Source: Pirellulales bacterium (lineage in GTDB: Bacteria > Planctomycetota > Planctomycetia > Pirellulales > PALSA-1355). Taken from it: DNA of 64,000 nt. Below, piece by piece: positions 6,018 to 33,767 of the stretch. Made by a program: the position numbers and the translations under genes. The notes under the pieces are model-generated. The model made no database searches. It was given only the letters and a program-made list of their open reading frames with translations, and was not told the DNA's origin. Numbering within the stretch: the first letter of the stretch is position 1; each line of letters starts with the position of its first letter. The DNA lies in contig CAVTBU010000006.1 of assembly GCA_963733035.1 (NCBI GenBank), positions 237,665 to 301,664 on the forward strand, written 5' to 3'.

Positions 6018-6021
6018 TTGG

Positions 6022-15726: not shown

Positions 15727-15985
15727 GCAACTCTCGGGAAACTCGGCCAATTCCCAACCCCGCGGCGCACAAAACGGCGCCGTCGCCGCACGGGGCAGTT
15801 TAGACGCCGAAATCAGCCCCCAGGGCGCCGCTTTGAGCGATGGCCAAATCGACGTCGGCCTCGTGGTCGTCATCCAGGCCTGGCCGCACCTGCCCCAGGC
15901 GATCGGGAAGGGGATCCTGGCACTGGTGCGGGCGGCTGAGAGCTGATTCGCGCCCCAAGTTCATCTCATGACTTGAAAGGCCTGA

Positions 15986-16696: not shown

Positions 16697-16755
16697 TTTG
16701 CATCAGGACGTAAGGCTGCCTGGGCCGGCGGATTGCTGCGGCGTTGTTGCGTTCA

Positions 16756-19463
16756 CTATCTCAACGTCCCGCGGCGGTGGGCCATCGGACACGAACTCCA
16801 GGCGAAACGCGGCACCACCCCCTTCGCGATTTCGGGCGCTGCGCGCCCGCCATGAGCATCCATGATGGCACGGCAGATTGCCAGTCCCAGCCCCGCCCCG
16901 CGCGAATCGGACTTGGCGTCCTCGCCACGCTGGAACCGCTCGAAGATCCGCTCCTCGTCCCCTGGCTTCAATCCAGGGCCGTGATCGGCGATCTCCAAAA
17001 TCGTCTTACGTCCGTCTTGCCAGGCACGGATCTCAATGGCCGTTCCGGCCGGCGTGTACCGGCAAGCATTGTCCAACAAGTTCACGATGGCCTGCTCGAC
17101 CAGGACGGCGTCTACGTGCGCGAGCAAAACTTCGGGCGGCAGATTGACGTTTACGGGCCGATTCGCGAGCGTCCGATCGAGCCGCCGCAGGGCCGAGGCG
17201 ACGATCTCTTCGACCGGCTGCCATTCCTTGCTGATTGCCGGCTTTTCGGAGGACGAAAGCTGCGTCATTCGCAGGATGTTCTCCACCAGCCGCGACAGGC
17301 GATCGGATTCTTCGAAGACGGTCTCCAGCAGTTCGCGTCGCGTCGGTTCGTCCATCGATGTACCACCGTGCAGGAGGCTGCTGGAAGCCCCGACGATCAC
17401 GGCCAGCGGAGTGCGCAAGTCATGCGAAATGGAGGAAAGCAGCGTGCTGCGAATCCTCTCCGTCTCCGCCTGTAGATGCGCCTGGTCCGACTCAAGCGTG
17501 AGCCGATCGCGCTCGATCGCCAAGGCAACCTGCGTCGAGTAGTTTTCCAGGATTTGCCGGTACTCGGGCAGGAGAAGTTTAGCGGCGTCGCTGTGGCGAA
17601 CCGCCAAGACACCCATCGTTCCGCTGGGAGATTGGAGCGGAAGGTAGAGCGCCCGGGCGGAGGGCAAAGTATCGGTGCCGTGGCCAGCCGGCTGGCCGTG
17701 GTCAAATACCCACTGCGCGACGGCAATCTCGGACGGATCGGCGGCGAATCGAGCGCGGTGGTCCAGGATCGGCTGTAACTTGCCGGCACGCGACAGGAAT
17801 ACGGCCGTGTCGCCGCCGAGGAACTCCGAGACGGCACGTTCCGTTTCTGCCGCGATGAAATCTTCGCCCACGATGCCGGTAAGCTTGCGGCCCAAGCGAT
17901 AGAGGGCCTCGATGCGTCGTTCGTTTCGCCGGGCGGACTCGGCCTGGCGTCGGACCCGCGCCGTTAGAGCCGCAATACTAAGCCCTGCAACGAGCATCAC
18001 CGCAAACGTGATCAGATACTGTGTGTCGTTGACAACCACGGTGTAATACGGCTGGGTAAAGATCACATCGAACAGCGCGACCGACACGACCGACGCCACG
18101 ATCGAGGGGCCTCGCCCATACCGGAACGCGACGAACATCACGCCCAGGAGGTAGGTCATCACCAGATTGGCTTCGGTCAGGCCTGCGCGATGCCAAAGTA
18201 ACGAGACGGCAGTGCACGCTGCCAGAACGATTGCCGTTCCGATCCAAGCACGCCACCGAAAACCAATCGTAGACGGAGTGGACGGCGGCGCATGCGGCAC
18301 CAGCTCGGCGGTTCCGTGGATCACGTACACGTCAATGTCGCCGCTCTCGCGAATCAACCGGTCCGCAGGCGACTGCCGTGGCCGGAACCATCCGCGCGTC
18401 AACTCGGACTTGCCGACGACGATCTTGGTCACGTTGCGCTCTTGAGCGTACCCGATCGTCTCGGCGACAAGGTCCTCGCCGCTTACGGTGGCGGTTTCCG
18501 CTCCCAGGCGCTCGGCGAGTCGAAGATGCGCGAGCAGCCGCGCGCGATCCTTCGCGGACATCTCGCCCGATTGCGACGATTCAACGTTGATGGCAATCCA
18601 CTCGGCTCCCAGGGACTCGGCCAAGCGCTTGGCCGCGCGCACCAGCCTGGCTGACGTGGGGCTGGGACCGACGCAAACCAGCAGTCGTTCGCGGGTGGCC
18701 CACACTTCGTGCCGGGCGCGAGCGAGCCGGGCGGTCTGCACGTCGGCGTGCACGCGTTCCGCCGTGCGGCGGAGAGCCAGTTCTCGCAGGGCGACGAGAT
18801 TCTCCTTGCGGAAGAAGTTCTCAAGCGCCCTTGCAGCTTGCGCCGGGATGTAGACTTTTCCCTGCTCAAGACGCTCGAGCAGGTCCTCCGGCGGCAGGTC
18901 GATCAGCGTCAGCTCGTCGGCCCGATTGAAAACATCATCGGGCACGGTTTCGCGCACGATGACGCCGCTGATCTGGGCAACGACATCGTTGAGCGATTCG
19001 ACATGCTGCACATTGCAGGTCGTGTTGACGTTAATTCCGGCGTCCAACAGCTCTTCGACATCCTGCCATCGCTTCACGTGTCGCAGTGATGGCGCATTCG
19101 TGTGTGCCAGCTCGTCGACGAGAATCAGTTCCGGTTTTCGTGCCAAAGCCGCATCCAGGTCAAATTCTCTCAGCGTCGTTCCGCGATAGGGAGCCTCCAG
19201 GGCGCAAGCCGCTCCAGACCTTCGAGCAGCTTCTCGGTTTCGGGCCGCCCGTGCGGTTCGACGTAGCCCACGACGACGTCCGCGCCCGCGGCTTGCTCGC
19301 TGCGAGCATCAAGCAACATGGAATACGTCTTGCCGACACCCGCGGAGTAGCCGAAGAATACTTTCAAGCGACCGCGCTTTGCCTGGTCGGATGACTCCGT
19401 GTCTCCCTCCGTCTTGAGACGAGCCAGCATCTGCTCGGGTGTGGGGCGATCACTGTCGGTCAT
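16756..19463 (-). CDS. kdpD: KdpD sensor histidine kinase, apparently frameshifted (97-aa N-terminal piece 19170..19463 plus 796-aa piece 16756..19146)
   Basis: KdpD N-terminal motif GYSAGVGKTYSML, then USP, GAF, HisKA and HATPase domains. The frame switch lies near 19190-19215 (LAPW.. versus ..PYRGTTLREFDLDAALARKPEL). Confidence 0.8.
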
Positions 19464-20047
19464 GGCGCGGCATTCGCTGGCGGCTTAGCAAGTTGGTCAA
19501 GGGCCACGTTAAGCTCGAGAATATTGACGATCGGCTCTCCTCCCAGAGCGACGATCGTCGGAGAGTCAATGTGCTGGCGAACCAGCTCTTCTACCTGCTC
19601 CGGCCGAAGGTTTCGCGCATCAGCCACCCGTGGCACCTGAAACATCGCAGCGGCCAGCGAAATGTGGGGGTCCATTCCCGAGCCGGATGTCGAGACGAGG
19701 TCGGCCGGAACGAGTTGCCCCGCATCGGGCTTTAGCTCGCCGATGATCTGCCGCGCTTTTTCCGTGAGCAAGGGATTCCTGGGCGACAAGTTGCTGCCTC
19801 CGGTGGCACTGGCATTGTAGTCGCATGCCGAGGGCCGCGGCCAGAAGTAGTCGTGTCGTGAGAAACCCTGCGCGAGCAGCCGCGAGCCGATGATCGTTCC
19901 GTCGGAACTCCTTACGAGGCTTCCCTGTCGCGACTGCGGCGCGGCGAGCACGGCGAAGCCCAGAATGACGGCCGGGTAAGCCACCGAGCAGACCAGAAGG
20001 CTCAATAAGAACAGTCGCAATGACGTGATGATGTCTCTCATGTTCAA
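19460..20047 (-). CDS. kdpC: K+-transporting ATPase subunit C
   Basis: Single N-terminal TM, KdpC-like sequence, operon position. Confidence 0.8.
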   Translation of the reverse strand: MNMRDIITSLRLFLLSLLVCSVAYPAVILGFAVLAAPQSRQGSLVRSSDGTIIGSRLLAQGFSRHDYFWPRPSACDYNASATGGSNLSPRNPLLTEKARQIIGELKPDAGQLVPADLVSTSGSGMDPHISLAAAMFQVPRVADARNLRPEQVEELVRQHIDSPTIVALGGEPIVNILELNVALDQLAKPPANAAP

Positions 20048-20072
20048 TTCTTTCTCACCCCGGGGCCAAAGG

Positions 20073-22181
20073 CTATGCCAATCCGAGGCCCGACAGGACC
20101 AAGTCGATCAACTTGATTCCCACAAACGGCACCACCAATCCGCCCAAGCCGTAGATGAGCAGGTTCCTCCGCAACAAAGCGTCGGCTCCCACGGCCCGGT
20201 AGCGCACGCCCCGGATCGCGATGGGAATGAGGCACGGGATCACGACGGCATTGAAGATCACGGCCGAAAGGATGGCACTCTGAGGCGTGGCGAGCCGCAT
20301 GATGTTCAGCACTTCCAACTGAGGCAGTGCGACCATGAAGATCGCCGGGATGATCGCGAAGTACTTGGCGACGTCGTTGGCCACGCTGAACGTGGTCAAC
20401 GCGCCGCGCGTCATAAGCATCTGCTTCCCCACCGATACGACGTCAATGAGCTTGGTCGGATTCGAATCGAGGTCGACCATGTTGCCGGCTTCCTTGGCGG
20501 CCTGTGTCCCGGTGTTCATCGCCACGGCCACGTCGGCCTGAGCCAGGGCAGGGGCATCGTTGGTGCCGTCGCCGGTCATGGCCACGAGATGCCCGTCTTT
20601 TTGATACTCCCGGATGAGTTCCAGCTTGGCCTCGGGCGTGGCTTCCGCGAGAAAATCATCAACGCCTGCCTCTGCGGCGATCGCAGCGGCCGTCTTGGGG
20701 TTGTCGCCGGTAATCATTACCGTCTTGATGCCCATGCGGCGCAACTCGATGAAGCGTTCTTTGATCCCGCCCTTGACGATGTCTTTCAGGTAAACGGTTC
20801 CCAGTACACGGCTATTCTCGGCAACCACAAGCGGCGTCCCGCCGGCGCGGGCAATCACGTCCACATCGTGTGCGACTTGCTCAGGAAAATCGCCGGCCTG
20901 TTCGTCTATAAATCGCCGGATCACGTCGGCCGCGCCCTTGCGGATGCGCCGACTGTCGAGGTTGATCCCACTCATTCGCGTGCGGGCCGTGAAGTTGACA
21001 AACTCGGCCTGCTTTGCTTCCAGCTCCCGGCCGCGGATGTTGAACCGCTCTTTGGCCAGGACGACGATGCTGCGCCCCTCGGGCGTTTCGTCAGCTAGTG
21101 AGGCCAGTTGGGCCGCATCTGCCAGTTGCCTCTCTTCGATTCCAGACGCGGGCCGGAATTCGGTGGCTTGGCGGTTCCCTAGCGTGATCGTGCCCGTTTT
21201 GTCCAACAGGAGCACATCCACGTCACCGGCAGCCTCGACGGCGCGGCCGGACATGGCCATTACATTCGCCTGGCTCAGACGCGCCATGCCGGCAATGCCA
21301 ATCGCGGCCAACAGCGCGCCGATCGTAGTAGGTATCAGGCAAACCAGCAGGGCGACCAGCGTTGGCACGTCGATGGTCACATCGAAGTATTGCGCAATGG
21401 GATAAAGCGTCGTGCAGACCATCAGGAATATCAAGGTGAAGCCGGCCAGCACGATGGTCAGCGCGATCTCGTTGGGGGTTTTTTGACGCTCCGCTCCCTC
21501 GACCATCGCAATCATGCGATCCAAGAAGCTTTCGCCGGGTCGGGCCGTGACGCGAATCACTAGATGGTCCGATAGCACGCGTGTTCCGCCCGTGACGGCT
21601 GAGCGGTCGCCACCGCTTTCGCGAATCACCGGAGCACTTTCGCCGGTGATCGCCGATTCATCGACCGAAGCGACGCCCTCGATGACTTCGCCATCGGCGG
21701 GAATCGTCTCGCCGGCTTCCACACGCACAAGGTCGCCGTTTTTCAACTCGGAGGCCGGCACGTCTTCGACAGTGGATTGGCTTTGATCGACGAACCGATG
21801 AGCGGTGACGTCTTGCCGCGCCTTGCGCAGGCTGGACGCCTGGGCGCGCCCCGCGCCTCGGCCACGGCCTCGGCGAAGTTCGCGAACCAGTCCGTCAGCC
21901 ACAGCCACACCGAGATGGCGAGGAAATAGCCGGTGCCTTCGCTTCTGGAGACGGCCGCCGAGAGCGTTGCCAATGTGGTCAACATGGCTCCAAGCTCCGT
22001 GACGAACATCACCGGGTTGCGGGCCATTGACCATGGGTTCAGCATTTTGATGGCCTGGCCGACCGATGGCAGCAGCATCCTGGCGGTGAAAAGCGACTTC
22101 TCCTTGCGAAAGGACGAGCCCCCGGAAGAGCCGCCGGCCGACATTGCTTCGACTTGCATGGAGTTTGGCCCTTCGAATCAA
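20073..22181 (-). CDS. kdpB: K+-transporting P-type ATPase subunit B
   Basis: DKTGTIT, TGDN and GDGxND motifs. Confidence 0.9.
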
Positions 22182-23848
22182 CGCGGATTGAGGTGTTCGG
22201 CGATCGGACCCAGCATCGCCAAGGGCAGGAACAACAAGGCTCCGACAATGAGGATCGTTCCCAGCAGGACGACGCCGAACAGCAGCGTGTCAGTGCGGAA
22301 AGTGCCGGCGGTCTCGGGAGCAGCCCGCTTGGCAGCCAATGAGCCAACGATGGCCAGCGGCGCGATGATGGGGATGAACCGACCCAATAACATGACGACT
22401 CCCGTGGCGATGTTCCACGGCACCGTGTTATCTCCCAGACCCTCAAAGCCAGACCCGTTGTTGGCGGCCGCGGAGCTGAACTCGTAGACGATTTCGCTCA
22501 AGCCGTGGCTGCCAGGATTGTGCAGCGTGTCCAGACCCCACGACGTGTCTGCGAACAGCGCGGTCCCGCCCAGGATGAACAGCGGATGAGCCAATAGCGC
22601 GATCAGCGCCAGCTTCATCTCCTTGGTTTCCACCTTGCGAGTGAGATACTCCGGTGTGCGGCCGACCATCATGCCGGCCAGGAATACCGCAGTAATCACG
22701 AACAGGAACATATTGATAAGCCCCACCCCGACGCCCCCGAACACGACGTTCAGCCACATCCCGGCCATCGGCACGATGCTCGTCAGCGGGTTCAGGCTGT
22801 CATGCATCGCGTTCACGCTGCCGTTGCTGGTCGAAGTGGTCGACACGGCCCATGTCGCACCGGCAGTTGTGCCGAAGCGCAGCTCCTTGCCTTCGAGGTT
22901 CATCGAATGCGCGACCGGCAAATCCTCTAAGGCGGCTGTCGGCTGGCTTTCAAGCCAACAAGCAGAGACGACGAAGCTCAGGTAAAGCGCCAGCATCACG
23001 CCGAAGAGCACCGCCGCGTGCCTGACGCGAGCGGTGATGCGGCCGAACATCCAGACGGTCGCCATCGGCACAAGCAGGATGGCAATGTTGGAAAGCACGT
23101 TCGACCAGAACGTCGGATTCTCGAAAGGATGCGTGCAATTCGGCCCGAACCAGCCTCCGCCGTTCGTGCCCAATTGCTTGATCGCGATGAAGGCCGCCAC
23201 CGGGCCACGGGCGATCGTCTGCGTCGCGCCTTCGAGCGTTGTGGCGACCGCCGCACCTTCCAGCGTCATGGGCACCCCGCAAACGACCAGCAGACCGGCC
23301 CAGACGATCGACAGCGGTAGCAGGATCAGGGCCGCCGCTCGCCAGACGTCTTGATAGAAGTTGCCCAGGCGCGAGAACCCTGCGAGCCCTCGGGCGAGCG
23401 CCGTGACGACCCCGATGCCCGTCGCCGCACTGACGAACTGCAGCCACATCAATGCCCCAAGCTGAGAGAAGTAGCTGAGCGATACTTCACCTGAATAGTG
23501 CTGTAAGTTTGTGTTGCTGGTAAAGCTGGCCGCGGTATTGAAGGCCAGGCTTGGTTCGATCGGGCCCTTGTCATCGGGATTGAGCGGCAACCACGGCTGA
23601 GTCGTCAATACGAGATACGCGAACACGAACATCAGCAGATTGAAGGCCAACATCGAGACGCAGTACTGTTTCCAACTCTGCGGCCGGCATATCTCATATC
23701 CAAGCAGCGCCACGCACGCTTTGTCGTAGCGGACGCGAATTGGTCCGGCGTCGCTCGGATCCATCGCCCACTGCATGTATCGCGCCAGCGGCCAAGAGAG
23801 GACGAGCGCTACCACGACGACGATTGTTGGAATAGTCAAACCGAGCAT
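22178..23848 (-). CDS. kdpA: K+-transporting ATPase subunit A
   Basis: 556-aa polytopic membrane protein, [14 protein letters not shown]-terminus typical of KdpA. Confidence 0.85.
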
Positions 23849-23864
23849 CGTCTGGTTTCCACTG

Positions 23865-23957
23865 CTAGAACTGCTCCGGCCGGATGATCACGTAGCAGAG
23901 ATAGCCGAATGCGAAGATCGTCGTCACGATCACGCAACCATTGACAAGCACTTCCAC
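23865..23957 (-). CDS. kdpF: Candidate KdpF (30 aa, GTG start), not present in the ORF track
   Basis: Hydrophobic peptide VEVLVNGCVIVTTIFAFGYLCYVIIRPEQF. GAGGAG RBS. Stop codon 17 nt before the kdpA start. Confidence 0.35.
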   Translation of the reverse strand: MEVLVNGCVIVTTIFAFGYLCYVIIRPEQF

Positions 23958-24166
23958 GGCATTCTCCTCACAGCCGCTCGCAGGCCCAAGTGAAACCAAG
24001 CATCGCCGTGAATTCGGCTATTCCAATGAGGAGCATCAAGATCCACATTCTATCGCCACTCAGGAACCGGCCAGCAAGTCGTCGACGGATGGATTCTAGT
24101 GGGGGCCGCGCTAAAACGGCGTCAAAAAGCCGGCCGCCCAGAATCCCCCAGACGGCGCGAGAATTC

Positions 24167-24480
24167 TTAGATTTCCCCATGAACCAACGAAACCCGAGCG
24201 GCGTCTAAGGTGTATAAGAGGGGTCGGGGCCAAGGGGCTGCTGACCGCTGTTGTGACAAGCTTTTACGGGTTGTTCCTTCCATGATGTTCTTACGGCCAA
24301 GACTGTTCCAAGAACGGATAGCCGGGAGTTATTGGCGCAGCGACAGTGTGCATTGATCGCGAAGCGATGCCGACCGCTGCAAGGTAATTCCTCCCCGCTA
24401 CCACTCCGCTTGTGACGCTTGGCCTTTAGGTCGATCTGGCTGCCAAAGCCCGGTGTCGCAAGGACATCGGGCTTTTTTTG
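24167..24480 (+). ncRNA. Candidate structured RNA, copy 2 (same element as 3461-3747)
   Basis: Same conserved blocks and terminator (gcccggtgtcgcaaggacatcgggc+T7). One variable hairpin is expanded. Confidence 0.45.
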
Positions 24481-24525
24481 TTGGCCTGACGTGGAGGTGG
24501 TGGCGGGGAACCAGGCAACACACAT

Positions 24526-24616
24526 GGGTCGGTAGCGGAGACGCGGGCACCATGCGCAGCATGGTCGGCGGTGGCCTGAAAAGCCGCAGACGAGGATTCG
24601 AGCGCCTCCCGACCCA
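24526..24616 (+). tRNA. tRNA-Phe(GAA)-like with a ~19-nt insertion in the D region (first member of array 2)
   Basis: Same acceptor, anticodon arm and T-arm as 3792-3863. Confidence 0.4.
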
Positions 24617-24621
24617 CTGCG

Positions 24622-24704
24622 CCGGGCACCGACCGCAGGTTGGTCGGCGCGACACTCAGACTGTCGTGCCGTAAGGCGTGGGAGTTCGAGTCTCCCCTTG
24701 GTCA
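24622..24704 (+). pseudogene. tRNA-Leu(CAG)-like pseudogene (no 5' acceptor strand)
   Basis: 3' two-thirds match 7127-7209. The 5' part is diverged. Confidence 0.35.
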
Positions 24705-24738
24705 CTGAACTGTTGGCGGGCAAGAACCCGTTGAACGA

Positions 24739-24807
24739 CGCAGGCGAGCCAGTGCTCAGCTGGGCCTCATAAGCCCGGACCGTCGGGTGCGACACCCGAA
24801 CCTGCTA
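24739..24807 (+). tRNA. tRNA-Met(CAT)-like, initiator-like (GGGC/GCCC anticodon stem, C1 mismatch), with non-canonical T-loop TGCGACA
   Basis: Loop CTCATAA. Paralog of 7227-7295. Confidence 0.4.
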
Positions 24808-24892
24808 CTAGCAACTGAGGCCGCCGAGCGATTAGCGAGGATGAAGACCGAAGGCGGTAGTCATCAGACAAGCCGCCGCGCAGCAGACATTT

Positions 24893-24966
24893 GGCCGGGT
24901 ACGCAAACTGGCAAAGCGACGAGGTCGAGAGCCTCGTGTTTGTGAGTTCGACTCTCACTCCGGTCA
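24893..24966 (+). tRNA. tRNA with anticodon GAG (copy of 7301-7376)
   Basis: Near-identical sequence. Confidence 0.45.
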
Positions 24967-24971
24967 CTGAC

Positions 24972-25044
24972 GATCCCGTGGTCCAACGGCTAAGACGCCT
25001 GGATGACACCCAGGAAACAGATGGTTCAACTCCATCCGGGATCA
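24972..25044 (+). tRNA. tRNA-Val(GAC) (copy of 7870-7942)
   Basis: Near-identical sequence. Confidence 0.55.
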
Positions 25045-25517
25045 CTTTGCAACCGAGTTGCGCAGCGAATCAGTCGGACATCGTTGACGAAAGTCGAGCG
25101 GCGAGCTTTCTGCCACACCAGGCTGCAACAGCCATCGGAATCGCTGCAGCAGCAAATTGAATCGGCATCACGATTGACAACGGTCCAAGGCCCGACGGAT
25201 CCGGCTCAAAGAGCGTGAGCAGGTACACGACGATAAACGCAGCCCCACAAACCATGCCAAGCAGGACTCCCTGAGAGGTGAGGAGTCCTACTAGATAATG
25301 CGATCGAACTTGCCGTTACGACAAGGTTCCATTCGCCATCGTCCGGTGAAATACGCCAGAATCCACCGACAAGGCAAATAGCCGTCACGGCAACGAACAG
25401 AGTTCGCAAGTTGAACTGTGACCGTGACTGTAGCTCGTTGTCTCCACCCATGATCGCCATTATACGGTACGACTTCTGGTTCAGGGCACCACGACAGAAC
25501 ACCGTTTACGTCGCAAT

Positions 25518-25588
25518 TGGGCTGCTCGTCCAACGGGAAGACGCCTGGCTTGCAACCAGGAAATCGGGGTTCGACTCCCCGGCGGTCC
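25518..25588 (+). tRNA. tRNA-Ala(TGC) (copy of 8174-8244)
   Basis: Identical sequence. Confidence 0.6.
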
Positions 25589-25599
25589 ACTGAACAACA

Positions 25600-25687
25600 C
25601 GGGCTCATGGTCCAAAGGGAAGACATCAGGCTGGCAGTCTGACCAGTGTCTATTGGAAATGCGGCGGGTTCAATTCCAGGTGGGTCC
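25600..25687 (+). pseudogene. tRNA-Ala(GGC)-derived element with an extended variable region and an unpaired T-stem
   Basis: The 5' half is identical to 8256-8300. The 3' half is diverged. Confidence 0.35.
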
Positions 25688-25711
25688 ACTCATCAATCAT
25701 GGAGACGTGAA

Positions 25712-25948
25712 ATGGCCGATTCTGTGTTGATCCGGTTCGTCGGCGAAAGAGGGAAAGCACATCACTTTTTGAAGCTTGGCCCGGTAGAGGTTTGGAACCC
25801 GCCGGAGCGTGAGTTTCAGGGTGGCGACGAAATCAGGGTGCAGATTCGCCCGAATGCCTTAAACCCAGATTGCGTGGACCTGACATTTGACGATGGACAA
25901 TACGCGATTGAAGTTCCGAAGGATTTCTTCGTGATCGTTGAGGAATGA
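25712..25948 (+). CDS. Hypothetical small protein
   Basis: 78 aa from MADSVLIRF. Ends 4 bp before IS copy 2. Confidence 0.35.
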   Translation: MADSVLIRFVGERGKAHHFLKLGPVEVWNPPEREFQGGDEIRVQIRPNALNPDCVDLTFDDGQYAIEVPKDFFVIVEE

Positions 25949-25951
25949 AAT

Positions 25952-27762
25952 GGAAGGTAGATGCTATGGCAGCGGCGAGGGACTGCGTTAGGCTCCGAGT
26001 CACGAGGGATTGTTTTATCCGTTGTTTTGAGGAGCTCAATCATGGCCACTCGACCGCAAGACTGCAGCACAACGAAGCCAGTACTGTTCCTGGGTCTCGA
26101 ATTAGGGCAGCGAACCTGGAAGTTGGGGTTCACCGTGGGTTTGGGTCAGAAGCCGCGGCGACGTGAGATCGCTGCCGGTTGCATTCAGGCACTGAAACGA
26201 GAGATCAATGAGAGTAAGCAACGTTTTGGTCTGCCTGCGGATGTGGAGGTGATTAGCTGTTACGAGGCAGGCCGTGATGGGTTTTGGCTGCATCGTTGGC
26301 TGGTGTCTGAGAACGTCACAAACTTGGTGGTTGACTCGTCTAGCATTCAAGTGCCGCGGCGGCAGCGACGGGCCAAGACCGATCGTCTGGATTTGGAACA
26401 ATTGTTGACCATGTTGGTGCGCTGGCATCAGGGCGAGTCGAAAGTCTGGAGCGTGGTGACGGTGCCGAGTGAAGCGGAAGAGGACGTTCGGCATTTGCAT
26501 CGCGAGTTGGAAACGCTGCGGGCGGAACAGACCAGCCACATCAATCGAATCAAGAGGCTGTTGATCGGTTGCGGCGTGGTGATTGATGTGAACCGCTGGC
26601 TACCGAAACGGCTCAAAGCAATACGGCTTTGGAATGGCTCGCCGTTGACCAGCGATTTGCGGCAACGGGTATTGCGGGAGTTCGAGCGGATGCAGGTGGT
26701 CAATCGACAGGTTCGCGAGCTGGAAAAGGAGCGTGCCGCCCGGATTCGCAGCAACGAAACTGACAAGAGCGTCGCCCAGGTGCGGACGTTGTTGGGCGTG
26801 AAGGGCATCGGCGTCAACAGCGCGTGGATGTACGTGCAGGAGGTGTTTGGCTGGCGAAAGATCAAGAATCGTCGTCAATTGGGTGCGCTCGTGGGGCTGA
26901 CCGGCAGTCCGTATAGCAGCGGCAACTTGGAGCGCGATCAGGGAATTACAAAGGCTGGAAACCGCCGGATGCGAACAATGGCTGTCGAAATCGCCTGGGG
27001 ATGGTTGGCATTCCAACCCGGCAGCGATCTGAGCCGTTGGTATCACGATCGATTCGCGGCCGGAAACAAGCGTCTTCGTCGCATTGGAATTGTGGCGCTG
27101 GCAAGAAAGCTGTTGGTGGAGTTGTGGAAATACCTGGAGACCGGCGTGCCGCCTTGCAACGCGGAGCTGACCGAGTGGGAGGACAAGATTCACTACACCC
27201 CTTCCCTTACGCCGGCGTAGCGATTGGATCGGTGCGAGTATGGAGCGTCTGAACGACTGACGTCGAGACTGGAAAGCGACCGAGTATCCGGCGGGTACGA
27301 GTTAGGCTCACCGAAAGGTAGATGGGATCGCTTTCATTATGGCTTCCCGAGAGCGTCCAGGACGCATAGGGCATAGGGTGATCGGCGATGATGCCGGCAC
27401 GGATAGAAGCTAGTCGTTGGCCTCGGCCACAACGATCAGCGGAAGCCGCCAGTCATGACGTTGAACCGACAGAAGAAGTGTTTTGAGGAATGGCAGGACA
27501 AATGAATGTGCATCCCAGCACGGCTCCAGCCGCGGCGTGCGGCCAGAGCCGTCACGGAATCATTCACCCGCCCTGACCTGGCTATCCCTTGTTGGGTTGC
27601 TCTTCAGCAGAGCTCAACTCCGTTTCACCAGGCAGGCGAAAGTATATCACGACTCAACGTTGGATGAGGAGCTTGACAGGTGCGCATCCATAGAAGCCGG
27701 ATACGGTTGGCCGGGCCGCTCTGCTAAGGCGGTTCCCGCTCGTCGGGATGAGGGTTCGAATC
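25952..27762 (+). mobile_element. IS110-family insertion sequence, copy 2
   Basis: Identical to 8690-10500 apart from 1 nt. Confidence 0.75.
26042..27220 (+). CDS. IS110-family transposase (copy 2)
   Basis: One amino-acid difference from copy 1. Confidence 0.8.
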   Translation: MATRPQDCSTTKPVLFLGLELGQRTWKLGFTVGLGQKPRRREIAAGCIQALKREINESKQRFGLPADVEVISCYEAGRDGFWLHRWLVSENVTNLVVDSSSIQVPRRQRRAKTDRLDLEQLLTMLVRWHQGESKVWSVVTVPSEAEEDVRHLHRELETLRAEQTSHINRIKRLLIGCGVVIDVNRWLPKRLKAIRLWNGSPLTSDLRQRVLREFERMQVVNRQVRELEKERAARIRSNETDKSVAQVRTLLGVKGIGVNSAWMYVQEVFGWRKIKNRRQLGALVGLTGSPYSSGNLERDQGITKAGNRRMRTMAVEIAWGWLAFQPGSDLSRWYHDRFAAGNKRLRRIGIVALARKLLVELWKYLETGVPPCNAELTEWEDKIHYTPSLTPA

Positions 27763-27792
27763 CCTTGCCTTCCGCTCGTGAACGATACGTGA

Positions 27793-27865
27793 GCCTCGAT
27801 GGTGAAACGGACGATCACTCCTTGCTTCTAACAAGGCATTCCGGGTTCGAATCCTGGTCGGGGCA
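27793..27865 (+). tRNA. tRNA-Arg(TCT)
   Basis: Acceptor gcctcga/tcggggc is perfect. Stem ccttg/caagg. Loop CTTCTAA. T-stem ccggg/cctgg. Confidence 0.55.
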
Positions 27866-27891
27866 TTTTTGAGGAATACGACAATATATAT

Positions 27892-27966
27892 GGCGTCCGT
27901 GGTGTAGCGGTTTCTGCACGTCTGGCTGTGAACCAGAAGGTGGCGGTTCAACTCCGCTCGGACACC
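27892..27966 (+). tRNA. tRNA-His(GTG) with an encoded G-1
   Basis: G-1 and C73 present. Stem tctgg/ccaga. Loop CTGTGAA. Confidence 0.55.
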
Positions 27967-27983
27967 CTGAAAGGAAGTGAAGC

Positions 27984-28580
27984 ATGGTCGCAAAGGTACT
28001 TGAACATCCAACGCTGGTGCTCAACCGCAACTGGCAGCCGGTGAACGTGGCCACGGTGGCCCGGGCGCTGGTGCTGTTGTGGAACGACTCGGCTCGCGTG
28101 GTGGACCCGGCGGACTACCGGCTCTACACCTGGGCCGATTGGTCGGAGCTGCGCCCGGACGAAGGCGAGCGGTTCATCCAGGCCGTGCGGCTGCGGCTGC
28201 GCGTGCCCGAGGTGATCGTGCTGGCCGAGTACGACCGGCTGCCGACCGCCGCCGTGAGCTTCAGCCGCCGCAACGTATTCAAGCGGGACCATTGGGCCTG
28301 CCAGTACTGCGGCTGCCAGCCGGGCGGAGAGGAGTTGACGATCGATCACGTGATTCCGCGGTCGCACGGTGGCACCTCGACGTGGGAGAACTGCGTGCTC
28401 GCGTGCATCGGCTGCAACAAGCGAAAGGCCGACCGCACGCCGCACCAGGCCGGTATGCGGCTCCACAAGGTGCCGGTCCGGCCGACGTGGAAGCCGATCT
28501 ACGCCCGCGACAGCGTGCGGATCGAAAGCTGGTCGAAGTTTATCAGCGAGACGTACTGGAATGTTCCGCTGGAGAAGTAG
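27984..28580 (+). CDS. HNH endonuclease
   Basis: HWACQYCGC..DHVIPRSHGG..WENCVLACIGCN motif. Confidence 0.75.
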   Translation: MVAKVLEHPTLVLNRNWQPVNVATVARALVLLWNDSARVVDPADYRLYTWADWSELRPDEGERFIQAVRLRLRVPEVIVLAEYDRLPTAAVSFSRRNVFKRDHWACQYCGCQPGGEELTIDHVIPRSHGGTSTWENCVLACIGCNKRKADRTPHQAGMRLHKVPVRPTWKPIYARDSVRIESWSKFISETYWNVPLEK

Positions 28581-28616
28581 CCAGTTGCCCGCAGGGCTTG
28601 TTCCTGCGGGCCTTAC

Positions 28617-28686
28617 ACGAGTGTGCTCCTGGGAGAGCAGTCAGCCTCCAAAACTGACGGACGGGGTTCGACTCCTCGCGCTCGTG
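28617..28686 (+). tRNA. tRNA-Trp(CCA)
   Basis: Acceptor acgagtg/cgctcgt. Loop CTCCAAA. Confidence 0.5.
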
Positions 28687-28689
28687 CTT

Positions 28690-28763
28690 GCCGACGTGGC
28701 TCGAAACAGAAAGGCACCTGTCTTGTAAACAGGTTGATGCTGGTGCGAATCCAGTCGTCGGCT
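28690..28763 (+). tRNA. tRNA-Thr(TGT), T-loop TGCGAAT
   Basis: Acceptor gccgacg/cgtcggc is perfect. Stem cctgt/acagg. Loop CTTGTAA. Confidence 0.5.
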
Positions 28764-28774
28764 CTTAAGAGTTT

Positions 28775-29080
28775 TCAGCTTGTCGCAGGCCCGCTACGGG
28801 CGTCGTCGAGCATAGTCACTAAAGATCTTCGCAGATCAGAACCGGGCTCCTGCAACCACCGATTGTCGTAACGCGCCAAATCTGTGGCGATGTTTGCCTC
28901 GGTGAACCACTCGCCGTCGCCACGAATTAAAGCTGGGACATTGTGCAATGCGTCCAAATAGTCGTGAACCTCGTCAATTGCGATCTGCTCTCCGTAGCGT
29001 ATCCGCATCCGCAAATGCGTGATCGCTCGTTCCAGAAATACCAGATAAACGTCGGCGTCGTCTTGCGGCAGGCGGAGCAT
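28775..29080 (-). CDS. Hypothetical protein
   Basis: 101-aa ORF. Confidence 0.35.
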   Translation of the reverse strand: MLRLPQDDADVYLVFLERAITHLRMRIRYGEQIAIDEVHDYLDALHNVPALIRGDGEWFTEANIATDLARYDNRWLQEPGSDLRRSLVTMLDDARSGPATS

Positions 29081-29134
29081 GGCACATCGCAGTCACGGAT
29101 TTCGTTTGGGAGAACTGCATTCATTGTAACGCTA

Positions 29135-29206
29135 TGGCCTGTGAGTGTGTGGGATCGCACGGCAGCCTCCGAAGCTGCAAGACCAGGTTCGATTCCTGGA
29201 TGGGCT
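29135..29206 (+). tRNA. tRNA-Arg(CCG)
   Basis: Stem gcagc/gctgc. Loop CTCCGAA. T-stem ccagg/cctgg. Confidence 0.55.
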
Positions 29207-29218
29207 ACTTGAACAATG

Positions 29219-29291
29219 CGTCTCGCGGGTGTGCCGGATGAGCACGGCAGTGTTCGAAACTGCAAGACGAGGTTCGATTCCTCGGCGAGGC
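29219..29291 (+). tRNA. tRNA-Arg(TCG)
   Basis: Acceptor gtctcgc/gcgaggc. Stem gcagt/actgc. Loop GTTCGAA. T-stem cgagg/cctcg. Confidence 0.55.
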
Positions 29292-29312
29292 ACTGATAAG
29301 GCGACAGACTGA

Positions 29313-29957
29313 ATGATCATGTTGCAAACAATCCTGACAGCACTGAGACGAGCTCTGTTTAGCCAGCCTGTAGCCGGCGGGGTGACGGCGAAGCCACCGT
29401 CGGCAGAGGCCGTCGCGTGTGCGGTCGTTCATTCGACGACTTCGGTGGATCGCAGCGAAGGGAGGCTTACCATGAACGCAGCCTATGACAAACTATGCGA
29501 ACACCTGACCAACCAGCACATCGGCTTTTGGTCGCGCAGCGAGGACCTGTCGATCTGCACGGACTTTCGGGGCGAGGTCGGCACGTACCGGATCTTCGCT
29601 CGGGTTGACGCTGATGACAGCTTGTTCCAGGTCTTCGGTCACTCGCCGGTTCGCGTTCCGCCAGGCTCGCGGCCGGCGATCGCCGAGGCCGTGGCGCGGA
29701 TCAACTGCGGTCTGAAGGTCGGCAAGTTCGAGATGGATTGTGACGAGGGCGAGCTGCGGTTTCAGGCGGCCCAGATTCTGCCCGACGACGATCTCGACGA
29801 GCAGACGATTCAGCGTCTGATTGGTACGACCATGTCGATGTTGAACATTTACCTCCCGGCCGTCCTGTCGGTCATCTACGGCAACGAACTGCCGAAGGAT
29901 GCCGTCAGGCACGCAGAGCCCGGGCGGCAGCTGTCCGACGAAAACGAGCCGCGGTGA
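29313..29957 (+). CDS. YbjN-like protein, copy 2
   Basis: 214 aa, paralog of 12794..13444. Confidence 0.45.
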   Translation: MIMLQTILTALRRALFSQPVAGGVTAKPPSAEAVACAVVHSTTSVDRSEGRLTMNAAYDKLCEHLTNQHIGFWSRSEDLSICTDFRGEVGTYRIFARVDADDSLFQVFGHSPVRVPPGSRPAIAEAVARINCGLKVGKFEMDCDEGELRFQAAQILPDDDLDEQTIQRLIGTTMSMLNIYLPAVLSVIYGNELPKDAVRHAEPGRQLSDENEPR

Positions 29958-29977
29958 GGCCTGATCACCGCGCATTT

Positions 29978-30050
29978 GTCCTCGGAGTGTGCCGGATTCG
30001 CATCCGACCCTGCGAAGGTCGAGGACCAGGTTCAATTCCTGGCGGGGACA
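29978..30050 (+). tRNA. tRNA with anticodon GCG, copy 2
   Basis: Near-identical to 13458-13530. Confidence 0.5.
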
Positions 30051-30083
30051 TTGAGGAACATTTAGAACTAAGCGAAGTGGTCA

Positions 30084-30743
30084 GTGGCACGCACAATCGG
30101 AAGCATCACGATGACTGAACTTGAACACCTTTCATTTGAGCAACTGTTGGACGGGTGCGAAAAGGGACTCAAAAACGCGCAGTCACTGGCCGCTGAGGCA
30201 GGGCTCCTCTACGAACATAAGTACTTTGCACGGACGTACGCTCTTAGTCACCTAGCAAGAGAAGAACTCGGCAAAGTCATGATGCTATATCACGCCGCCA
30301 TCGACGTCCTCGTTGGTGCGACCGTTGACTGGAAGAAGCTGAGCCGACGGTTCCGAAATCACCAAGAGAAGATCATAAACGATCAAATGTTCCAATCGCA
30401 CACGATGGATCTCTTGAAGGCAGCTGAATTGCTAACGGAGCAAGAGCAGGGTCAATTGGCGGCAGCGCAGCATCTCCAATTCACGAAACAGGCGATCGCG
30501 TATCGTAATCGCAGAAAAAACGCGTCCCTCTACGTGTCCTGGGAGGATCTTGCCTTTCAGATGCCCTCTGAGGTATTCACCGAGCAACAAGCGTATCGAA
30601 TCTGGATGATTGCCAAATTTGCATGCGACGACTTCACTCGGATAGTTGAGTCACTTAGAAAATGGGGTGCCCTGGAGCGAGAGCAGTTACTCGGAGTCTG
30701 GAAGCCTGTCATCGAACAGATACAAAGCCTCCTGAAGGAATAA
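30084..30743 (+). CDS. Hypothetical protein
   Basis: 219-aa ORF. This slot is occupied by a different gene in the other duplicate region. Confidence 0.45.
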   Translation: MARTIGSITMTELEHLSFEQLLDGCEKGLKNAQSLAAEAGLLYEHKYFARTYALSHLAREELGKVMMLYHAAIDVLVGATVDWKKLSRRFRNHQEKIINDQMFQSHTMDLLKAAELLTEQEQGQLAAAQHLQFTKQAIAYRNRRKNASLYVSWEDLAFQMPSEVFTEQQAYRIWMIAKFACDDFTRIVESLRKWGALEREQLLGVWKPVIEQIQSLLKE

Positions 30744-30747
30744 CAGC

Positions 30748-30819
30748 GACGCTGAAGCCAGACGGCATGGCGACTGCCTGCAAAGCAGTTTTTAGCGGGT
30801 TCGACTCCCGCCGGCGTCT
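30748..30819 (+). tRNA. tRNA-Cys(GCA), copy 2
   Basis: Paralog of 14087-14158. Confidence 0.6.
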
Positions 30820-30964
30820 TTGAAGCGAAATCAGAAAGGAGATTGAAGCGAGGTTGATTCGGCCAGTTCCAGCGGCGCACGGCGGCTCGTCCTTGATGAG
30901 AGGCGATTGCTGCACGTGTGTTCCGCGAATGGGTTCTGCAGAAAGCTGCGTCTACCGTAACCAA

Positions 30965-31038
30965 CAGATGGTTAGCTCAGTGGGTAGAGCACCAGACTTT
31001 GCATCTGGCTGTCACGGGTTCGACTCCCGTACCAAACG
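30965..31038 (+). pseudogene. tRNA-Ala(TGC)-like pseudogene, copy 2
   Basis: Same as 14303-14376. Confidence 0.4.
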
Positions 31039-31444
31039 CGGCTAAAAACCGCTCCGGCGCGAAAGCGTTACCAAACGCCCGCGGGGGCGGGCAAGCGTAG
31101 GTCTGCCGCTGGCACAGCGTTGAAAGACGCGGGCCCGTGCGGCGCAAGCGTCGCAACGTGCCACGTGCCAGTGGCAAACACAAGACGGTGCCCTGCAGTG
31201 CGCAGATACCGCTTGTGCGAGTCCTTGGCAACGACAAACCGACGCCGATGGCAAAGCGCGAGCCATGCTCAAGCAACGCCCTCGGCAAAGCGAAATCAAC
31301 GCCTTGGATAGCACAGGCTCAAGCGCACTCCGCATACGGATGTGGGACCGACGTTTCGCTTCGCCCCCAACGGCATTTTATTTGTGAACTAACTCGGTGG
31401 CTCGAACGTCCTATCAGTTCATGTACCGAGAGGAGGCAATTCCA

Positions 31445-32557
31445 ATGAACATCTTCATCATCAAGACAATCAAGATCCGCAGCTACGAAATGGGTCTGTA
31501 CTTCCGCGACCGCGAGTTCAAGGGCTTGCTCGGCGAAGGTCGCCACTGGTTCATAGACCCGCTGGGCAAGGTCAATGTTGAAGTCGTCTCGCGGCGTGCG
31601 CCGTGGCTCGCGCACGAGAAGCTCGACGTGATCTCGCGCTCGGGTGCGCTCAAGGACCGCGCGGTGGTGTTGGACCTGAAGGACTACGAACGGGCTCTGG
31701 TCTGGATCGAGGGTCGCTTCAGCCACATCCTGCCGCCGGGCCTGTACGCCTACTGGACGGCGCTGCGTGACGTAAAGGTCGAGGTGGTCGATGCGCGGCA
31801 TGTGCGCTTCGAGCACCCGGACCTGAAAGTCATCGTGCAGTCGCCGCTGGTCGAGCGCGTGCTGGAGCTGGCCACCGTGCAGGCGCACCACGTGGGCGTG
31901 CTGTTCATCGACGGCGACTTCGTTGAGACGTTGCCGCCGGGCCGCTACGCCTTCTGGAAGAACATGGCCCAGGTCAAGTTCGTCGAGGAGGATATGCGGG
32001 AGGCGATGTTCGACGTGGCCGGCCAGGACATTATGACGGCCGATAAGGTGACGCTGCGGATGAACGCGGTCGTCACGTATCGCGTCGCCGATGCCCGGAC
32101 GGCTGTGAGCACGGTGGACGACGTGCGGCAGGCCTTGTACCGCGAGGCCCAATTGGCGCTGCGTGCCGTGGTGGGTGCCCGCGAGCTCGACACGTTCTTG
32201 ATGGAGAAGGACGGCGTGGCGAGCGAGTTGGCCGACATGGTGCGTGCGCGTGCCAAGACCTTGGGCGTGGAGCTGATTGCCGTGGGTATCCGCGACATCA
32301 TCCTGCCGGGCGAAATGAAGGATCTGATGAACCGCGTCACGGAGGCCAAGAAGGCCGCCGAGGCCAACCTCATCGCTCGCCGCGAGGAAACGGCCGCCAT
32401 GCGCAGCCAAGTCAACACCGCCAAGCTGCTAGCCGACAACCCGACCCTGATGCGCCTCCGCGAGCTGGAGGTCCTGGAAAAGGTTGCCGCCAACTCGAAG
32501 CTCAACATTGTGTTGGGCGAAAAGCGGTTGACCGAGCGGATCGTCAATGTGCTGTAG
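31445..32557 (+). CDS. SPFH/Band-7 (stomatin/prohibitin-like) domain protein with an ~200-aa N-terminal domain of unknown function
   Basis: C-terminal half QDIMTADKVTLRMNAVVTYRV..LRAVVGARELD..GVELIAVGIRDI..AEA fits the SPFH domain. Confidence 0.7.
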   Translation: MNIFIIKTIKIRSYEMGLYFRDREFKGLLGEGRHWFIDPLGKVNVEVVSRRAPWLAHEKLDVISRSGALKDRAVVLDLKDYERALVWIEGRFSHILPPGLYAYWTALRDVKVEVVDARHVRFEHPDLKVIVQSPLVERVLELATVQAHHVGVLFIDGDFVETLPPGRYAFWKNMAQVKFVEEDMREAMFDVAGQDIMTADKVTLRMNAVVTYRVADARTAVSTVDDVRQALYREAQLALRAVVGARELDTFLMEKDGVASELADMVRARAKTLGVELIAVGIRDIILPGEMKDLMNRVTEAKKAAEANLIARREETAAMRSQVNTAKLLADNPTLMRLRELEVLEKVAANSKLNIVLGEKRLTERIVNVL

Positions 32558-32631
32558 CAAGAAGCCCCGAGGGCTGGACGCGAGTCCCGCCCTCGGGATT
32601 ATTCTATTGAGCAAGCGGATCCTCGGCAGCC

Positions 32632-33608: not shown

Positions 33609-33767
33609 GTCTCATCCCCAAAAAAGCTTCCCGAATACCACATCACCCGCCTTTCCACAACCGCCTGGGTTTTCGCGATGTCCGCCCGCACTGTTTCGTT
33701 CAACGCCAGGCCGCGGGCGACTATACTTGTACCACACTCGCGCCATCACGAATCGCTCGTTAGTGAC

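Follow-up and report, generated by a model that had tools for sequence, protein, structure and literature searches.

Long arrays of transfer RNA (tRNA) genes, defined as array units or L-arrays when they hold 20 or more tRNA genes with two or more per kb (PMC4758250), have been spread by horizontal transfer and later remodelled by deletions, insertions and duplications, and the Planctomycetes are among the phyla listed as carrying them (PMC4758250; PMC8421152). Known examples include the trn operon of Anabaena PCC 7120 and the array of an integrative and conjugative element of Acidithiobacillus (PMC8421152; PMC4758250); regulation of the Anabaena array involves direct repeats in its promoter. 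This article concerns two such arrays, array 1 and array 2, in a stretch of 64,000 nucleotides (nt) from a Pirellulales bacterium (contig CAVTBU010000006.1), the whole of which is referred to as the window. A preliminary description had taken array 2 (24526-25689) for a condensed, syntenic derivative of array 1, produced by duplication of a unit of leader, array and insertion sequence (IS) followed by internal deletion, or by recombination between tRNA genes.

As in the known long arrays, tens of co-oriented supernumerary tRNA genes are found here at high density and with a patchy phylogenetic distribution, the order conserved among related, horizontally transferred arrays has been broken by deletions, insertions and pseudogenes, and an open reading frame (ORF) of the HNH homing type is present. 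The arrays of the window differ in existing as two diverged, complementarily decayed copies at one locus on tandem islands, in having a conserved leader of ~300 nt with an intrinsic terminator where the Anabaena array uses promoter direct repeats, and in their defence or RNA-repair ORF cassettes (cREC_REC, HNH, AbiV-HEPN) in fixed slots and their class I tRNAs with Leu anticodons. Array 2 is a decayed member of this known class, and its history is one of ordinary evolution of horizontally acquired arrays.

Tandem accretion at tRNA genes by tyrosine integrases is known for the Islander/TIGER islands (PMC4383910), and SGI1 occurs in tandem at the trmE/thdF site (PMC2297512). The window shares with such tandem islands an integrase beside the 3' end of the target tRNA, a T-arm core repeated directly at the boundaries, what appears to be a second related island in the regenerated site and a decayed integrase end of the older island. 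It departs from them in that a tRNA array, and not a set of virulence or resistance genes, is carried, that the distal end of island 1 lies outside the window, and that the islands are known from their sequence alone. We consider it probable that the locus consists of two related integrative islands in tandem at tRNA-Glu(CTC), each with one copy of a mobile module built around a long tRNA array.

Two modules on two probable islands

At the right-hand end of the locus, a tyrosine integrase gene (39083-40309, + strand; Pfam Phage_integrase) adjoins the 3' end of its target gene, tRNA-Glu(CTC) (40401-40474, - strand; ARAGORN), and part of this tRNA recurs as a direct repeat at the far boundary (attachment site, att; 40341-40425 = 15645-15722), which is the arrangement of an island that integrates into tRNA genes. 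Island 2 (15723-40400) carries the kdpE-A genes, module B, BrxL, a DUF3987 gene and the integrase. Directly before it, at 15393-15722 (+ strand), lies the remnant of another integrase, consisting of the 3' end of the gene, the intergenic sequence and the 15-16 nt T-arm core of tRNA-Glu (GGGGAGTCGAACCCC); it shares 90.2% identity with 40090-40425 and marks the border of islands 1 and 2. At 15394 this remnant is abutted by the cut SPFH gene of module A, and since the SPFH gene runs straight into it, island 1 has lost ~8 kb. The missing stretch corresponds to 32066-40090 and includes BrxL, the split DUF3987 primase gene and most of the integrase.

At two further loci, L024 and L027, an integrase of the same family lies at the same tRNA-Glu, beside the same host genes (a kinase, a DLH hydrolase and others). 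The integrase and att of L024 are 91.8% identical to those of the window, with host flanks at 72-82%, and the integrase of L027, on a small island without an array, is 82% identical. Related contigs repeatedly stop at or just inside the tRNA-Glu(CTC) island locus (the ends of L025 and L026, the start of L024), so the region seems to be repetitive or variable in natural populations.

ARAGORN called 45 tRNA genes in the window, 27 of them in 3792-8327 (array 1) and six in 24526-25689 (array 2), with further ones in 12516-14158 and 27793-30819. Array 1 is part of module A (3457-15394) and array 2 is the front of module B (24163-32063/32610). When positions 1-20000 were compared with 20001-40000 by blastn, the two modules matched in strictly colinear order with E-values of 1e-18 to 1e-73. 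The matching segments, with A before B, are the leader and tRNA-Phe (3457-3869 = 24163-24622, 79% with gaps), the 3' part of Leu(CAG) with a tRNA-like gene bearing a CAU anticodon (7152-7297 = 24648-24809, 78.5% with gaps), the GAG tRNA (7301-7378 = 24893-24968, 97%), Val(GAC) (7869-7947 = 24971-25050, 95%), Ala(TGC) with the 5' part of Ala(GGC) (8173-8297 = 25518-25642, 98%), the IS with pieces of tRNA-Ser(GCT) (8690-10500 = 25952-27762, 99.9%), Arg(TCT) (12516-12615 = 27793-27876, 94-100%), a YbjN-like gene with Arg(GCG) (12752-13532 = 29271-30052, 93.5%), and the stretch from Cys to the SPFH gene (14087-15394 = 30748-32063, 89%). As the leader and spacers, which are not tRNA sequence, also match, the likeness goes beyond the paralogy of single tRNAs. 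The upstream element that the preliminary description had seen before both arrays is confirmed by the leader match, and so is the membership of array 2 in array 1 order: Phe*, Leu(CAG)*, the CAU tRNA-like gene, Leu(GAG), Val(GAC), Ala(TGC) and Ala(GGC)*, where an asterisk marks a damaged member of module B. The shared unit had been thought to end with the IS; leader, array and IS are indeed colinear, but colinearity runs on to 15394 and 32063.

In module A, the leader and front of the array (3457-8327, leader 3457-3791, + strand) hold 27 ARAGORN genes from Phe to Ala(GGC), at ~6 per kb an L-array by definition. The truncated back half (12516-15394, + strand) comprises Arg(TCT), the YbjN-like gene, Arg(GCG), an ORF at 13380-14042, Cys, a tRNA at 14307-14372 and the cut SPFH gene. 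The back half of array B (27793-31034, + strand) comprises Arg(TCT), His, an HNH ORF (27984-28580), Trp, Thr(TGT), Arg(CCG), Arg(TCG), the YbjN-like gene (29313-29957), Arg(GCG), an AbiV-like HEPN gene (30084-30743), Cys and a tRNA recognised by Rfam (30969-31034). The last conserved gene of the module, SPFH/Band_7 (31397-32557, + strand), is full length in B and cut at 15394 in A. All array genes lie on the + strand and would be close enough for co-transcription. Decay of the two copies is complementary: A is without the block from His to Arg(TCG) that B keeps with its HNH endonuclease ORF (B 27876-29271), B has kept its back genes and its front is without Glu(TTC) to Glu(CTC) and Thr(GGT), and Ser(GCT) is interrupted in both. 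With 14 ARAGORN genes in 24526-30819, six of them in the front where three of six are damaged, module B alone falls below the L-array count; it is by homology a degraded L-array remnant and by count no array unit.

Related modules were found by scanning species-representative genomes with the YbjN-like protein common to both modules, which led to four Planctomycetota metagenome-assembled genomes. Two loci, L001 and L003, each hold a single uninterrupted array of 35-36 tRNA genes in ~7.5 kb behind the same leader, in the order Phe, Glu, Pro, Ile, Lys, Ile(TAT), Lys and onwards to Leu(CAG), the CAU-like gene, Leu(GAG), Val(GAC), (Thr(GGT)), Ala, Ala, Ser(GCT), Arg(TCT), His, Trp, Thr(TGT), Arg(CCG), Arg(TCG), YbjN, Arg(GCG) and Cys; the same back half is found in L002, L005 and L008. 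Uninterrupted long arrays with the same leader in relatives indicate that the long form is ancestral, which settles the comparison that the preliminary description had proposed and bears out its view that the short form arose from the long one by internal deletion. The converse, an ancestral array 2 from which array 1 expanded, was rejected, as L001 and L003 have long arrays and Leu(CAG) is truncated in B.

Accretion or duplication

The host kinase of the L003 and L002 genomes is 63% and 61% identical in protein to that of the window, whereas the modules are 91-95% identical in DNA, and this far greater divergence of the kinase shows that the module moves horizontally. Guanine-plus-cytosine (GC) content is 0.55-0.58 in the modules and 0.60-0.63 in their surroundings, and the Glu(CTC) sequence of the array differs from the host tRNA-Glu(CTC) at 40401-40474. 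The contrast between host and module divergence, the low GC content, the integrase-bearing island and the distinct Glu(CTC) all point to an array that was horizontally acquired and is supernumerary. A megablast search of array 1 against plasmids returned only a 41-nt chance match.

Divergence among A, B, L001 and L003 was assessed over 1604 concatenated ungapped columns, with 1000 bootstraps and counts of quartet-informative sites. A and B differ by 8.9%, A and L001 by 5.6%, and B and L001 by 6.1%, and throughout the segments that they share, each of A and B is closer to another species' module than to the other. A and B were the most divergent pair of A, B and L001 in 1000 of 1000 bootstraps and the closest pair in none, and the grouping of A with B against L001 and L003 is the least supported of the three quartets (nine sites, against 20 for A with L001 and 13 for A with L003). 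A recent local duplication of A and B is excluded.

Tandem accretion of islands is favoured by the repeated att and integrase sequence, by the use of the same site in L024 and L027, by the horizontal movement of the module, and by the island-1 remnant being equally far from island 2 (90.2%) and from the L024 island (91.3%). We infer that the A and B islands were acquired independently rather than by an old duplication. Such a duplication, in which the whole island would have been copied in tandem by the integrase or by homologous recombination at att, followed by ~9% divergence and complementary decay, with the IS arriving later or homogenised by gene conversion, is the best surviving alternative. 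It would account for the att site and architecture that both islands share, for the star-like phylogeny with long private A and B branches, and for decay that is complementary, as expected of redundant copies. It is unlikely, however, given that changes shared by A and B are not in excess, that the remnant is no nearer to island 2 than to the L024 island of another species, that the left-hand cargo is wholly different (the kdp operon in island 2, unrelated ORFs at 1-3457), and that the module is demonstrably mobile between distant hosts.

Less still survives of duplication in place, as first proposed, in which the leader, array and IS were copied locally and the second copy then lost members 2 to 24 by deletion or by crossover between tRNA genes. 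The colinear order, the shared leader and the nearly identical IS at the same position would all be explained, but the repeat unit is the whole island, far larger, and ends with its own integrase remnant and att. B keeps five tRNA genes (His, Trp, Thr(TGT), Arg(CCG) and Arg(TCG)) and the HNH ORF that are gone from A, each module is nearer to a module of another species, the IS copies are 99.94% identical with flanks at 86-93% and came later than the divergence of the modules, and the deletion junction bears a foreign hairpin and no hybrid tRNA. Duplication in place is very unlikely on these grounds, and a descent of array 2 from array 1 is not supported: the two modules are sister copies of one ~36-gene ancestor. 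An assembly artefact, in which two metagenome strain variants of one island were joined in tandem, might be suspected since the related genomes found are metagenome-assembled and their contigs often break here, but it is highly improbable in view of a junction (15645-15722) built as in true tandem integration, with an integrase-side arm, a 15-nt core and a new left arm, of the unique 8.4-kb kdp operon between the modules, and of large specific indels between A and B in place of strain variation at the level of single-nucleotide polymorphisms.

Several points weigh against independent accretion. The kdp operon is host-like in GC content (0.61-0.63) though formally inside island 2, and island 1 is defined from its right end only, its left end being outside the window or lost (there is no third att copy in 1-15644). 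No relative near this genome was found to have an empty site or a single island; the contigs of the closest relatives (kinase 86% identical) stop ~300 nt past the kinase on the tRNA-Glu side. The tree of A, B, L001 and L003 is nearly star-like, with private branches of 46 (A), 42 (B) and 10 (L001) changes, and under relaxed constraint an old duplication could mimic independent acquisition on such a tree. In each related genome the examined locus was one of 20 kb, so that a second module without the YbjN gene would escape. Gene conversion between the modules is a possible alternative to separate arrivals of the IS.

Under tandem accretion, the ancestral module would have consisted of a leader with its terminator, ~36 tRNA genes in fixed order, small variable ORF cassettes, the YbjN-like gene and the SPFH gene. 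In the B lineage, a single deletion of ~3.3 kb would have removed Glu(TTC) to Glu(CTC) and the first 25 nt of Leu(CAG), with its right end at a hairpin designated H1b; Thr(GGT) would also have been lost, and hairpin or short insertions would have damaged Phe and Ala(GGC). Module A would have decayed in a complementary manner, losing His to Arg(TCG) and then the ~8 kb that lie between the SPFH gene and the integrase 3' end. The near-identical IS would not have been inherited with the module, and would have entered both copies after their divergence.

Array 2, its deletion junction and the hairpin insertions

For 24526-25689, ARAGORN reports a 92-nt 'Cys(GCA)', Leu(CAG), Leu(GAG), Val(GAC), Ala(TGC) and an 89-nt Ala(GGC), all on the + strand. 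The first call is a miscall of tRNA-Phe(GAA)* (24526-24617), in which a hairpin, H1a (24544-24570), stands in place of 7 nt of the D loop and stem; it is called Cys because the GCA loop of the inserted hairpin is taken as the anticodon. The 3' 55 nt are 100% identical to the Phe of array 1 and the D region is 19 nt longer, exactly the insertion that the preliminary description had reported. Its match to the Rfam tRNA model (threshold 29 bits) is partial at 16.3 bits, against 54.8 bits for the A counterpart, and the fold predicted by RNAfold keeps the acceptor, anticodon and T arms. Leu(CAG)* (24620-24705, + strand) retains the anticodon arm, variable arm, T arm and 3' acceptor strand and has lost the 5' acceptor strand and D arm; it does not match the Rfam tRNA model (A counterpart 56.4 bits), and its RNAfold prediction has no acceptor stem. 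Ala(GGC)* (25601-25689, + strand) has a damaged T stem and a 23-nt insertion of a second type, H2 (25643-25665), in the variable region, and at 27.1 bits it too falls under the Rfam threshold (A counterpart 58.4 bits). The degenerate state ascribed earlier to Leu(CAG) and Ala(GGC) is thereby upheld.

The member formerly termed Met-like (24737-24816, + strand) is a conserved gene with a CAU loop and has counterparts in A, L001 and L003 (24737-24809 is 88% identical to 7225-7297 of A), but it is no canonical tRNA. Its anticodon loop reads CUCAUAA, its D loop has 4 nt, and the T arm is replaced by a 7-bp hairpin with a loop of 3 nt; the gene was missed by ARAGORN and by the Rfam tRNA model, with only a weak match to Tymo_tRNA-like. 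Three members are intact and called by ARAGORN on the + strand: the class I-shaped tRNA with a GAG anticodon (24893-24967; Rfam 43.9 bits; 97% identical to 7301-7378), Val(GAC) (24972-25045; 56.5 bits) and Ala(TGC) (25519-25590; 54.4 bits). Between the latter two, a spacer (25046-25518) occupies the place of Thr(GGT) in A and L003; it has no homology to A, L001 or L003, and its ORF (25206-25502, - strand) has no Pfam match. A pseudo-tRNA at ~8093-8160 of A is, like Thr(GGT), absent from B in addition to the genes of the large gap.

After Ala(GGC)*, a cassette with a small ORF (25690-25951, ORF 25712-25948, + strand) is inserted before Ser(GCT). It is unrelated to the A cassette at the same slot (8336-8689, ORF 8345-8647, - strand), and relatives have a 6-9 nt spacer there. 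The small ORFs reported after each array thus exist, but they are not counterparts, being unrelated (BLASTP E = 2.6) and on opposite strands.

The large deletion of ~3.3 kb in B runs from 6 nt past Phe into the D arm of Leu(CAG). A deletion had been foreseen as spanning members 2 to 24; its extent is instead 21 detectable genes (members 2-22 by ARAGORN and Rfam) and the first 25 nt of Leu(CAG). The junction reads Phe-CCA CTGCGC, then CGGGCACCGACCGCAGGTTGGTCGG, then CGCGACACTCAG, of which the left part is the normal 3' flank of Phe and the right part is Leu(CAG) from position 26. At the junction lies H1b (24623-24649, 27 nt, + strand), a hairpin with a 7-bp stem and a GCA loop that is foreign to both Phe and Leu(CAG). 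This foreign hairpin between the Phe flank and position 26 of Leu(CAG), with no hybrid tRNA present, argues that the deletion was not a crossover between tRNA genes, contrary to what had been suggested. H1b is identical to H1a at 22 of 27 positions, with differences that keep the stem paired, and the two copies of this pattern in the window compare with 0.03 expected by chance. We infer that H1b promoted the deletion.

A third copy, H1c (10501-10524), is found in the T arm of the Ser(GCT) remnant of A. Across 185 kb scanned there are eight distinct GGGCACC-N-GGTC hairpins, three in the window and five outside it (L007 427-454; L009 1347-1368, - strand; L015 584-614 and, on the - strand, 281-311; L019 2250-2271), and every one of them sits within a tRNA gene of such an array, in either orientation. 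The form is CGGGCACC-stem-loop-stem-GGTC, of 22-31 nt, in the D loop, variable region or T arm. The stems differ by compensatory changes, and the copies at 10501 of the window and 2250 of L019 share one T-loop site of Ser(GCT) but not the same stem. The H2 sequence, of ~22 nt (CCRGTRTYT...GGRA..GCGG), is found in the variable region of Arg(TCT) in A (12561-12582), of Ala(GGC)* in B, and of Arg(TCT) in L008 (366-386), where it occupies the same site as in A and the array is a distant one (YbjN protein 61% identical); it is absent from Arg(TCT) of B, L001, L002 and L003. That H1 might be a precise intron was rejected, since its removal restores no canonical tRNA and 5-7 host nt have been replaced.

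H1 resembles repetitive extragenic palindromic (REP) sequences and miniature inverted-repeat transposable elements (MITEs) in being a hairpin of 22-31 nt with conserved flanks and compensatory variable stems, in occurring as several copies in either orientation and in having one copy at a deletion junction. It is unlike them in that every copy lies inside an array tRNA gene rather than between genes, that 5-7 nt of the host tRNA are replaced, and that no associated transposase was identified. Both H1 and H2 occupy defined structural positions and recur at the same site in distant arrays. It is possible, though doubtful, that the degeneracy of array 2 reflects specific colonisation of planctomycete array tRNA genes by two families of miniature elements rather than random decay; if so, H1 and H2 would represent a previously undescribed element, mobile or recombinogenic, that is aimed at tRNA genes and drives the erosion of arrays. 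They could alternatively be a functional extra arm or processing signal of array tRNAs. No relevant report of hairpin insertions in array tRNAs came up in a search of the literature.

The insertion sequence, the leader and other features

An element of the IS110/IS1111 family interrupts tRNA-Ser(GCT) in both modules, at 25961-27694 in B (1734 nt, + strand; Ser 5' piece 25952-25960, 3' piece 27695-27780) and at 8699-10432 in A (+ strand), where the 3' remnant of Ser carries H1c. The preliminary description had spoken of an identical IS110 copy, and near-identity holds, with one mismatch in 1734 nt (99.94%), but the 1811-nt repeat is not all IS, as its first 9 and last 68 nt are tRNA-Ser(GCT). 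The flanks of the IS are 86-93% identical, from which it follows that the IS arrived after the modules diverged. The tRNA gene is split between nt 9 and 10, with the left junction reading GGAAGGTAG followed by ATGCTATGG and the right one CCATAGA followed by AGCCGGATACGG, and AG on both sides. L001 has identical Ser pieces as well, and they therefore carry no information on inheritance.

The transposase matches PF02371 (8.7e-12) and PF01548 (9.4e-05, under its curated cut-off), that is, a Transposase_20 C-terminal and a DEDD (RuvC-like) N-terminal domain, and its homologs are titled 'IS110 family RNA-guided transposase'. In both the domains and the long non-coding region downstream of tnp, the gene for the transposase, as in the subterminal inverted CTATGG/CCATAG and a strict target common to diverged copies, the element resembles RNA-guided IS1111/IS110 elements that use a seekRNA (PMC11187229), from which it differs in its target, the 5' end of the array tRNA-Ser(GCT) gene, and in that its RNA can be judged here by sequence only. 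A relative that is 85% identical in DNA (88% in protein) has the same junctions with GGAAGGTAG and AGCCGGATACGG in environmental contigs, some of them in tRNA-Ser genes of other arrays, and also lies beside at least two other right-hand contexts beginning AGCCGTATA. Junctions of GGAAGGTAG with AGCCG(G/T)ATA are common to A, B and loci L014-L023, a shared and sequence-specific target.

The 474-nt non-coding region 3' of tnp holds GTATCCGGC, the reverse complement of the right target, and AAGGTAGATG, which matches the left junction. These guide-like 9-mer and 10-mer (10022-10030 and 10053-10062) sit inside a stem, GAAAGCGA...TCGCTTTC (10009-10073 and 27271-27335), in a layout that matches the one published for IS1111-type seekRNAs (PMC11187229). 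The guide-like block is 100% conserved in the 85% relative, where the neighbouring 40 nt before it have diverged, and strings resembling donor ends (GGATAGAAGC, GCATAGGG) are found ~60-85 nt beyond it. The block is a candidate seekRNA or bridge RNA; no Rfam family was found in the IS non-coding region at gathering threshold. A bridge RNA of IS621 has reportedly been described by Durrant et al. 2024. The element would be an RNA-guided IS1111-type IS with nt 1-17 of the array tRNA-Ser(GCT) as its target, and GGAAGGTAGCCGGATACGG is proposed as a sequence that could serve as a plasmid-borne target. The shared position is explained by site-specific, probably RNA-guided insertion into both copies after their divergence. 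Plasmid searches with the IS returned distant IS110 matches only, and exact-protein look-ups of the transposase of the window, its cluster members P0001 and P0124, and KdpA returned no record.

The leader of module B (24163-24525, + strand) is a copy of a conserved non-coding element of ~280-330 nt and has a 25-nt insertion relative to A. It closes with an intrinsic-terminator hairpin ~45 nt before the first tRNA (3712-3742 in A). Copies lie at 3476-3750 and 24182-24486 of the window, 3960-4238 of L001, 4127-4408 of L003 and 887-1168 of L006; the four copies linked to arrays (A, B, L001 and L003) have a stretch of 70 nt without any change, and in L006 the element directly precedes a YbjN-like ORF and no tRNAs are present. 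The helices predicted by RNAalifold are long-range, and few of their pairs (4/88) are compensatory. Searches of the leader returned no Rfam family at gathering threshold or at E <= 10 apart from terminator-like small RNA (sRNA) matches, a sigma-70 scan of it no promoter, and a search of viral contigs no match to its core. Attenuation by a leader peptide was rejected, since the 9-codon ORF of A and B (MNPRNPSGV), which differs between them by a Ser-synonymous change from TCC to AGC, lacks its ATG in L001 and L003. The leader may be a cis-regulatory RNA or an sRNA gene, and with its terminator it could be an undescribed riboregulator of the array.

Fixed slots between the tRNA genes hold unrelated ORF cassettes in different copies (5245-5793, - strand; 7406-7843, - strand; 8345-8647, - strand, versus 25712-25948, + strand; 27984-28580, + strand; 13380-14042 versus 30084-30743, + strand). 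Their contents include a cREC_REC protein (a cyclic-phosphate receiver domain, as in regulators of Rtc RNA repair), an HNH endonuclease and, in B, the AbiV-like HEPN protein, whose slot holds a 220-amino-acid ORF of no known identity in A and a 395-amino-acid ORF in L003; the A and B ORFs of this slot, between Arg(GCG) and Cys, show no homology to each other. After the Ser(GCT) remnant, module A has a 2-kb insertion (10525-12515) that is absent from B and relatives; its three ORFs are on the minus strand, and one of them (10933-11463) has a Tox-REase-2 nuclease fold. An inverted repeat of 147 nt and 85.7% identity (208-351 versus 12228-12374) lies directly upstream of ORF 352-1749 (+ strand) and ORF 11487-12260 (- strand), and could represent either a 5' regulatory region common to both or the end of a mobile element. 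Those array tRNAs that have the Leu anticodons TAA, TAG, CAA and GAG (6548-6622, 6632-6704, 6876-6950, 7301-7377 and 24893-24967) are 73-77 nt long with a short variable loop, the class I shape, and only Leu(CAG) has the long arm expected of a bacterial tRNA-Leu; the array also holds Ile(TAT) (4324-4397). The amino-acid identity of the class I Leu-anticodon tRNAs and of Ile(TAT) is uncertain.

In island 2, the kdpE, kdpD, kdpC, kdpB and kdpA genes (15986-23848, - strand; Pfam KdpD, E1-E2 ATPase and KdpA) are formally the left-hand cargo. A lone BrxL gene (BREX Lon-like; 35025-36692, - strand) was found, and the ORFs scanned included no other recognised BREX component. The primase-like DUF3987 gene is split into two ORFs (36685-38933, + strand) and is a single gene of ~780 amino acids in L027 and the P0133 contig. 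The backbone of island 2 appears to be decaying.

Current understanding of long tRNA arrays is not overturned by this locus, in which an earlier inference of local duplication gives way to tandem accretion of mobile islands. For those who study tRNA arrays or IS110 elements, it offers a natural tRNA-gene target of an IS1111-type element, a conserved array leader and tRNA-specific hairpin insertions, of which the hairpin insertions and the leader deserve most further attention. Above all, the erosion history of a long array can be followed here at one locus, from an ancestral 36-gene order through two diverged copies and exact deletion junctions to a probably RNA-guided IS on one array member.

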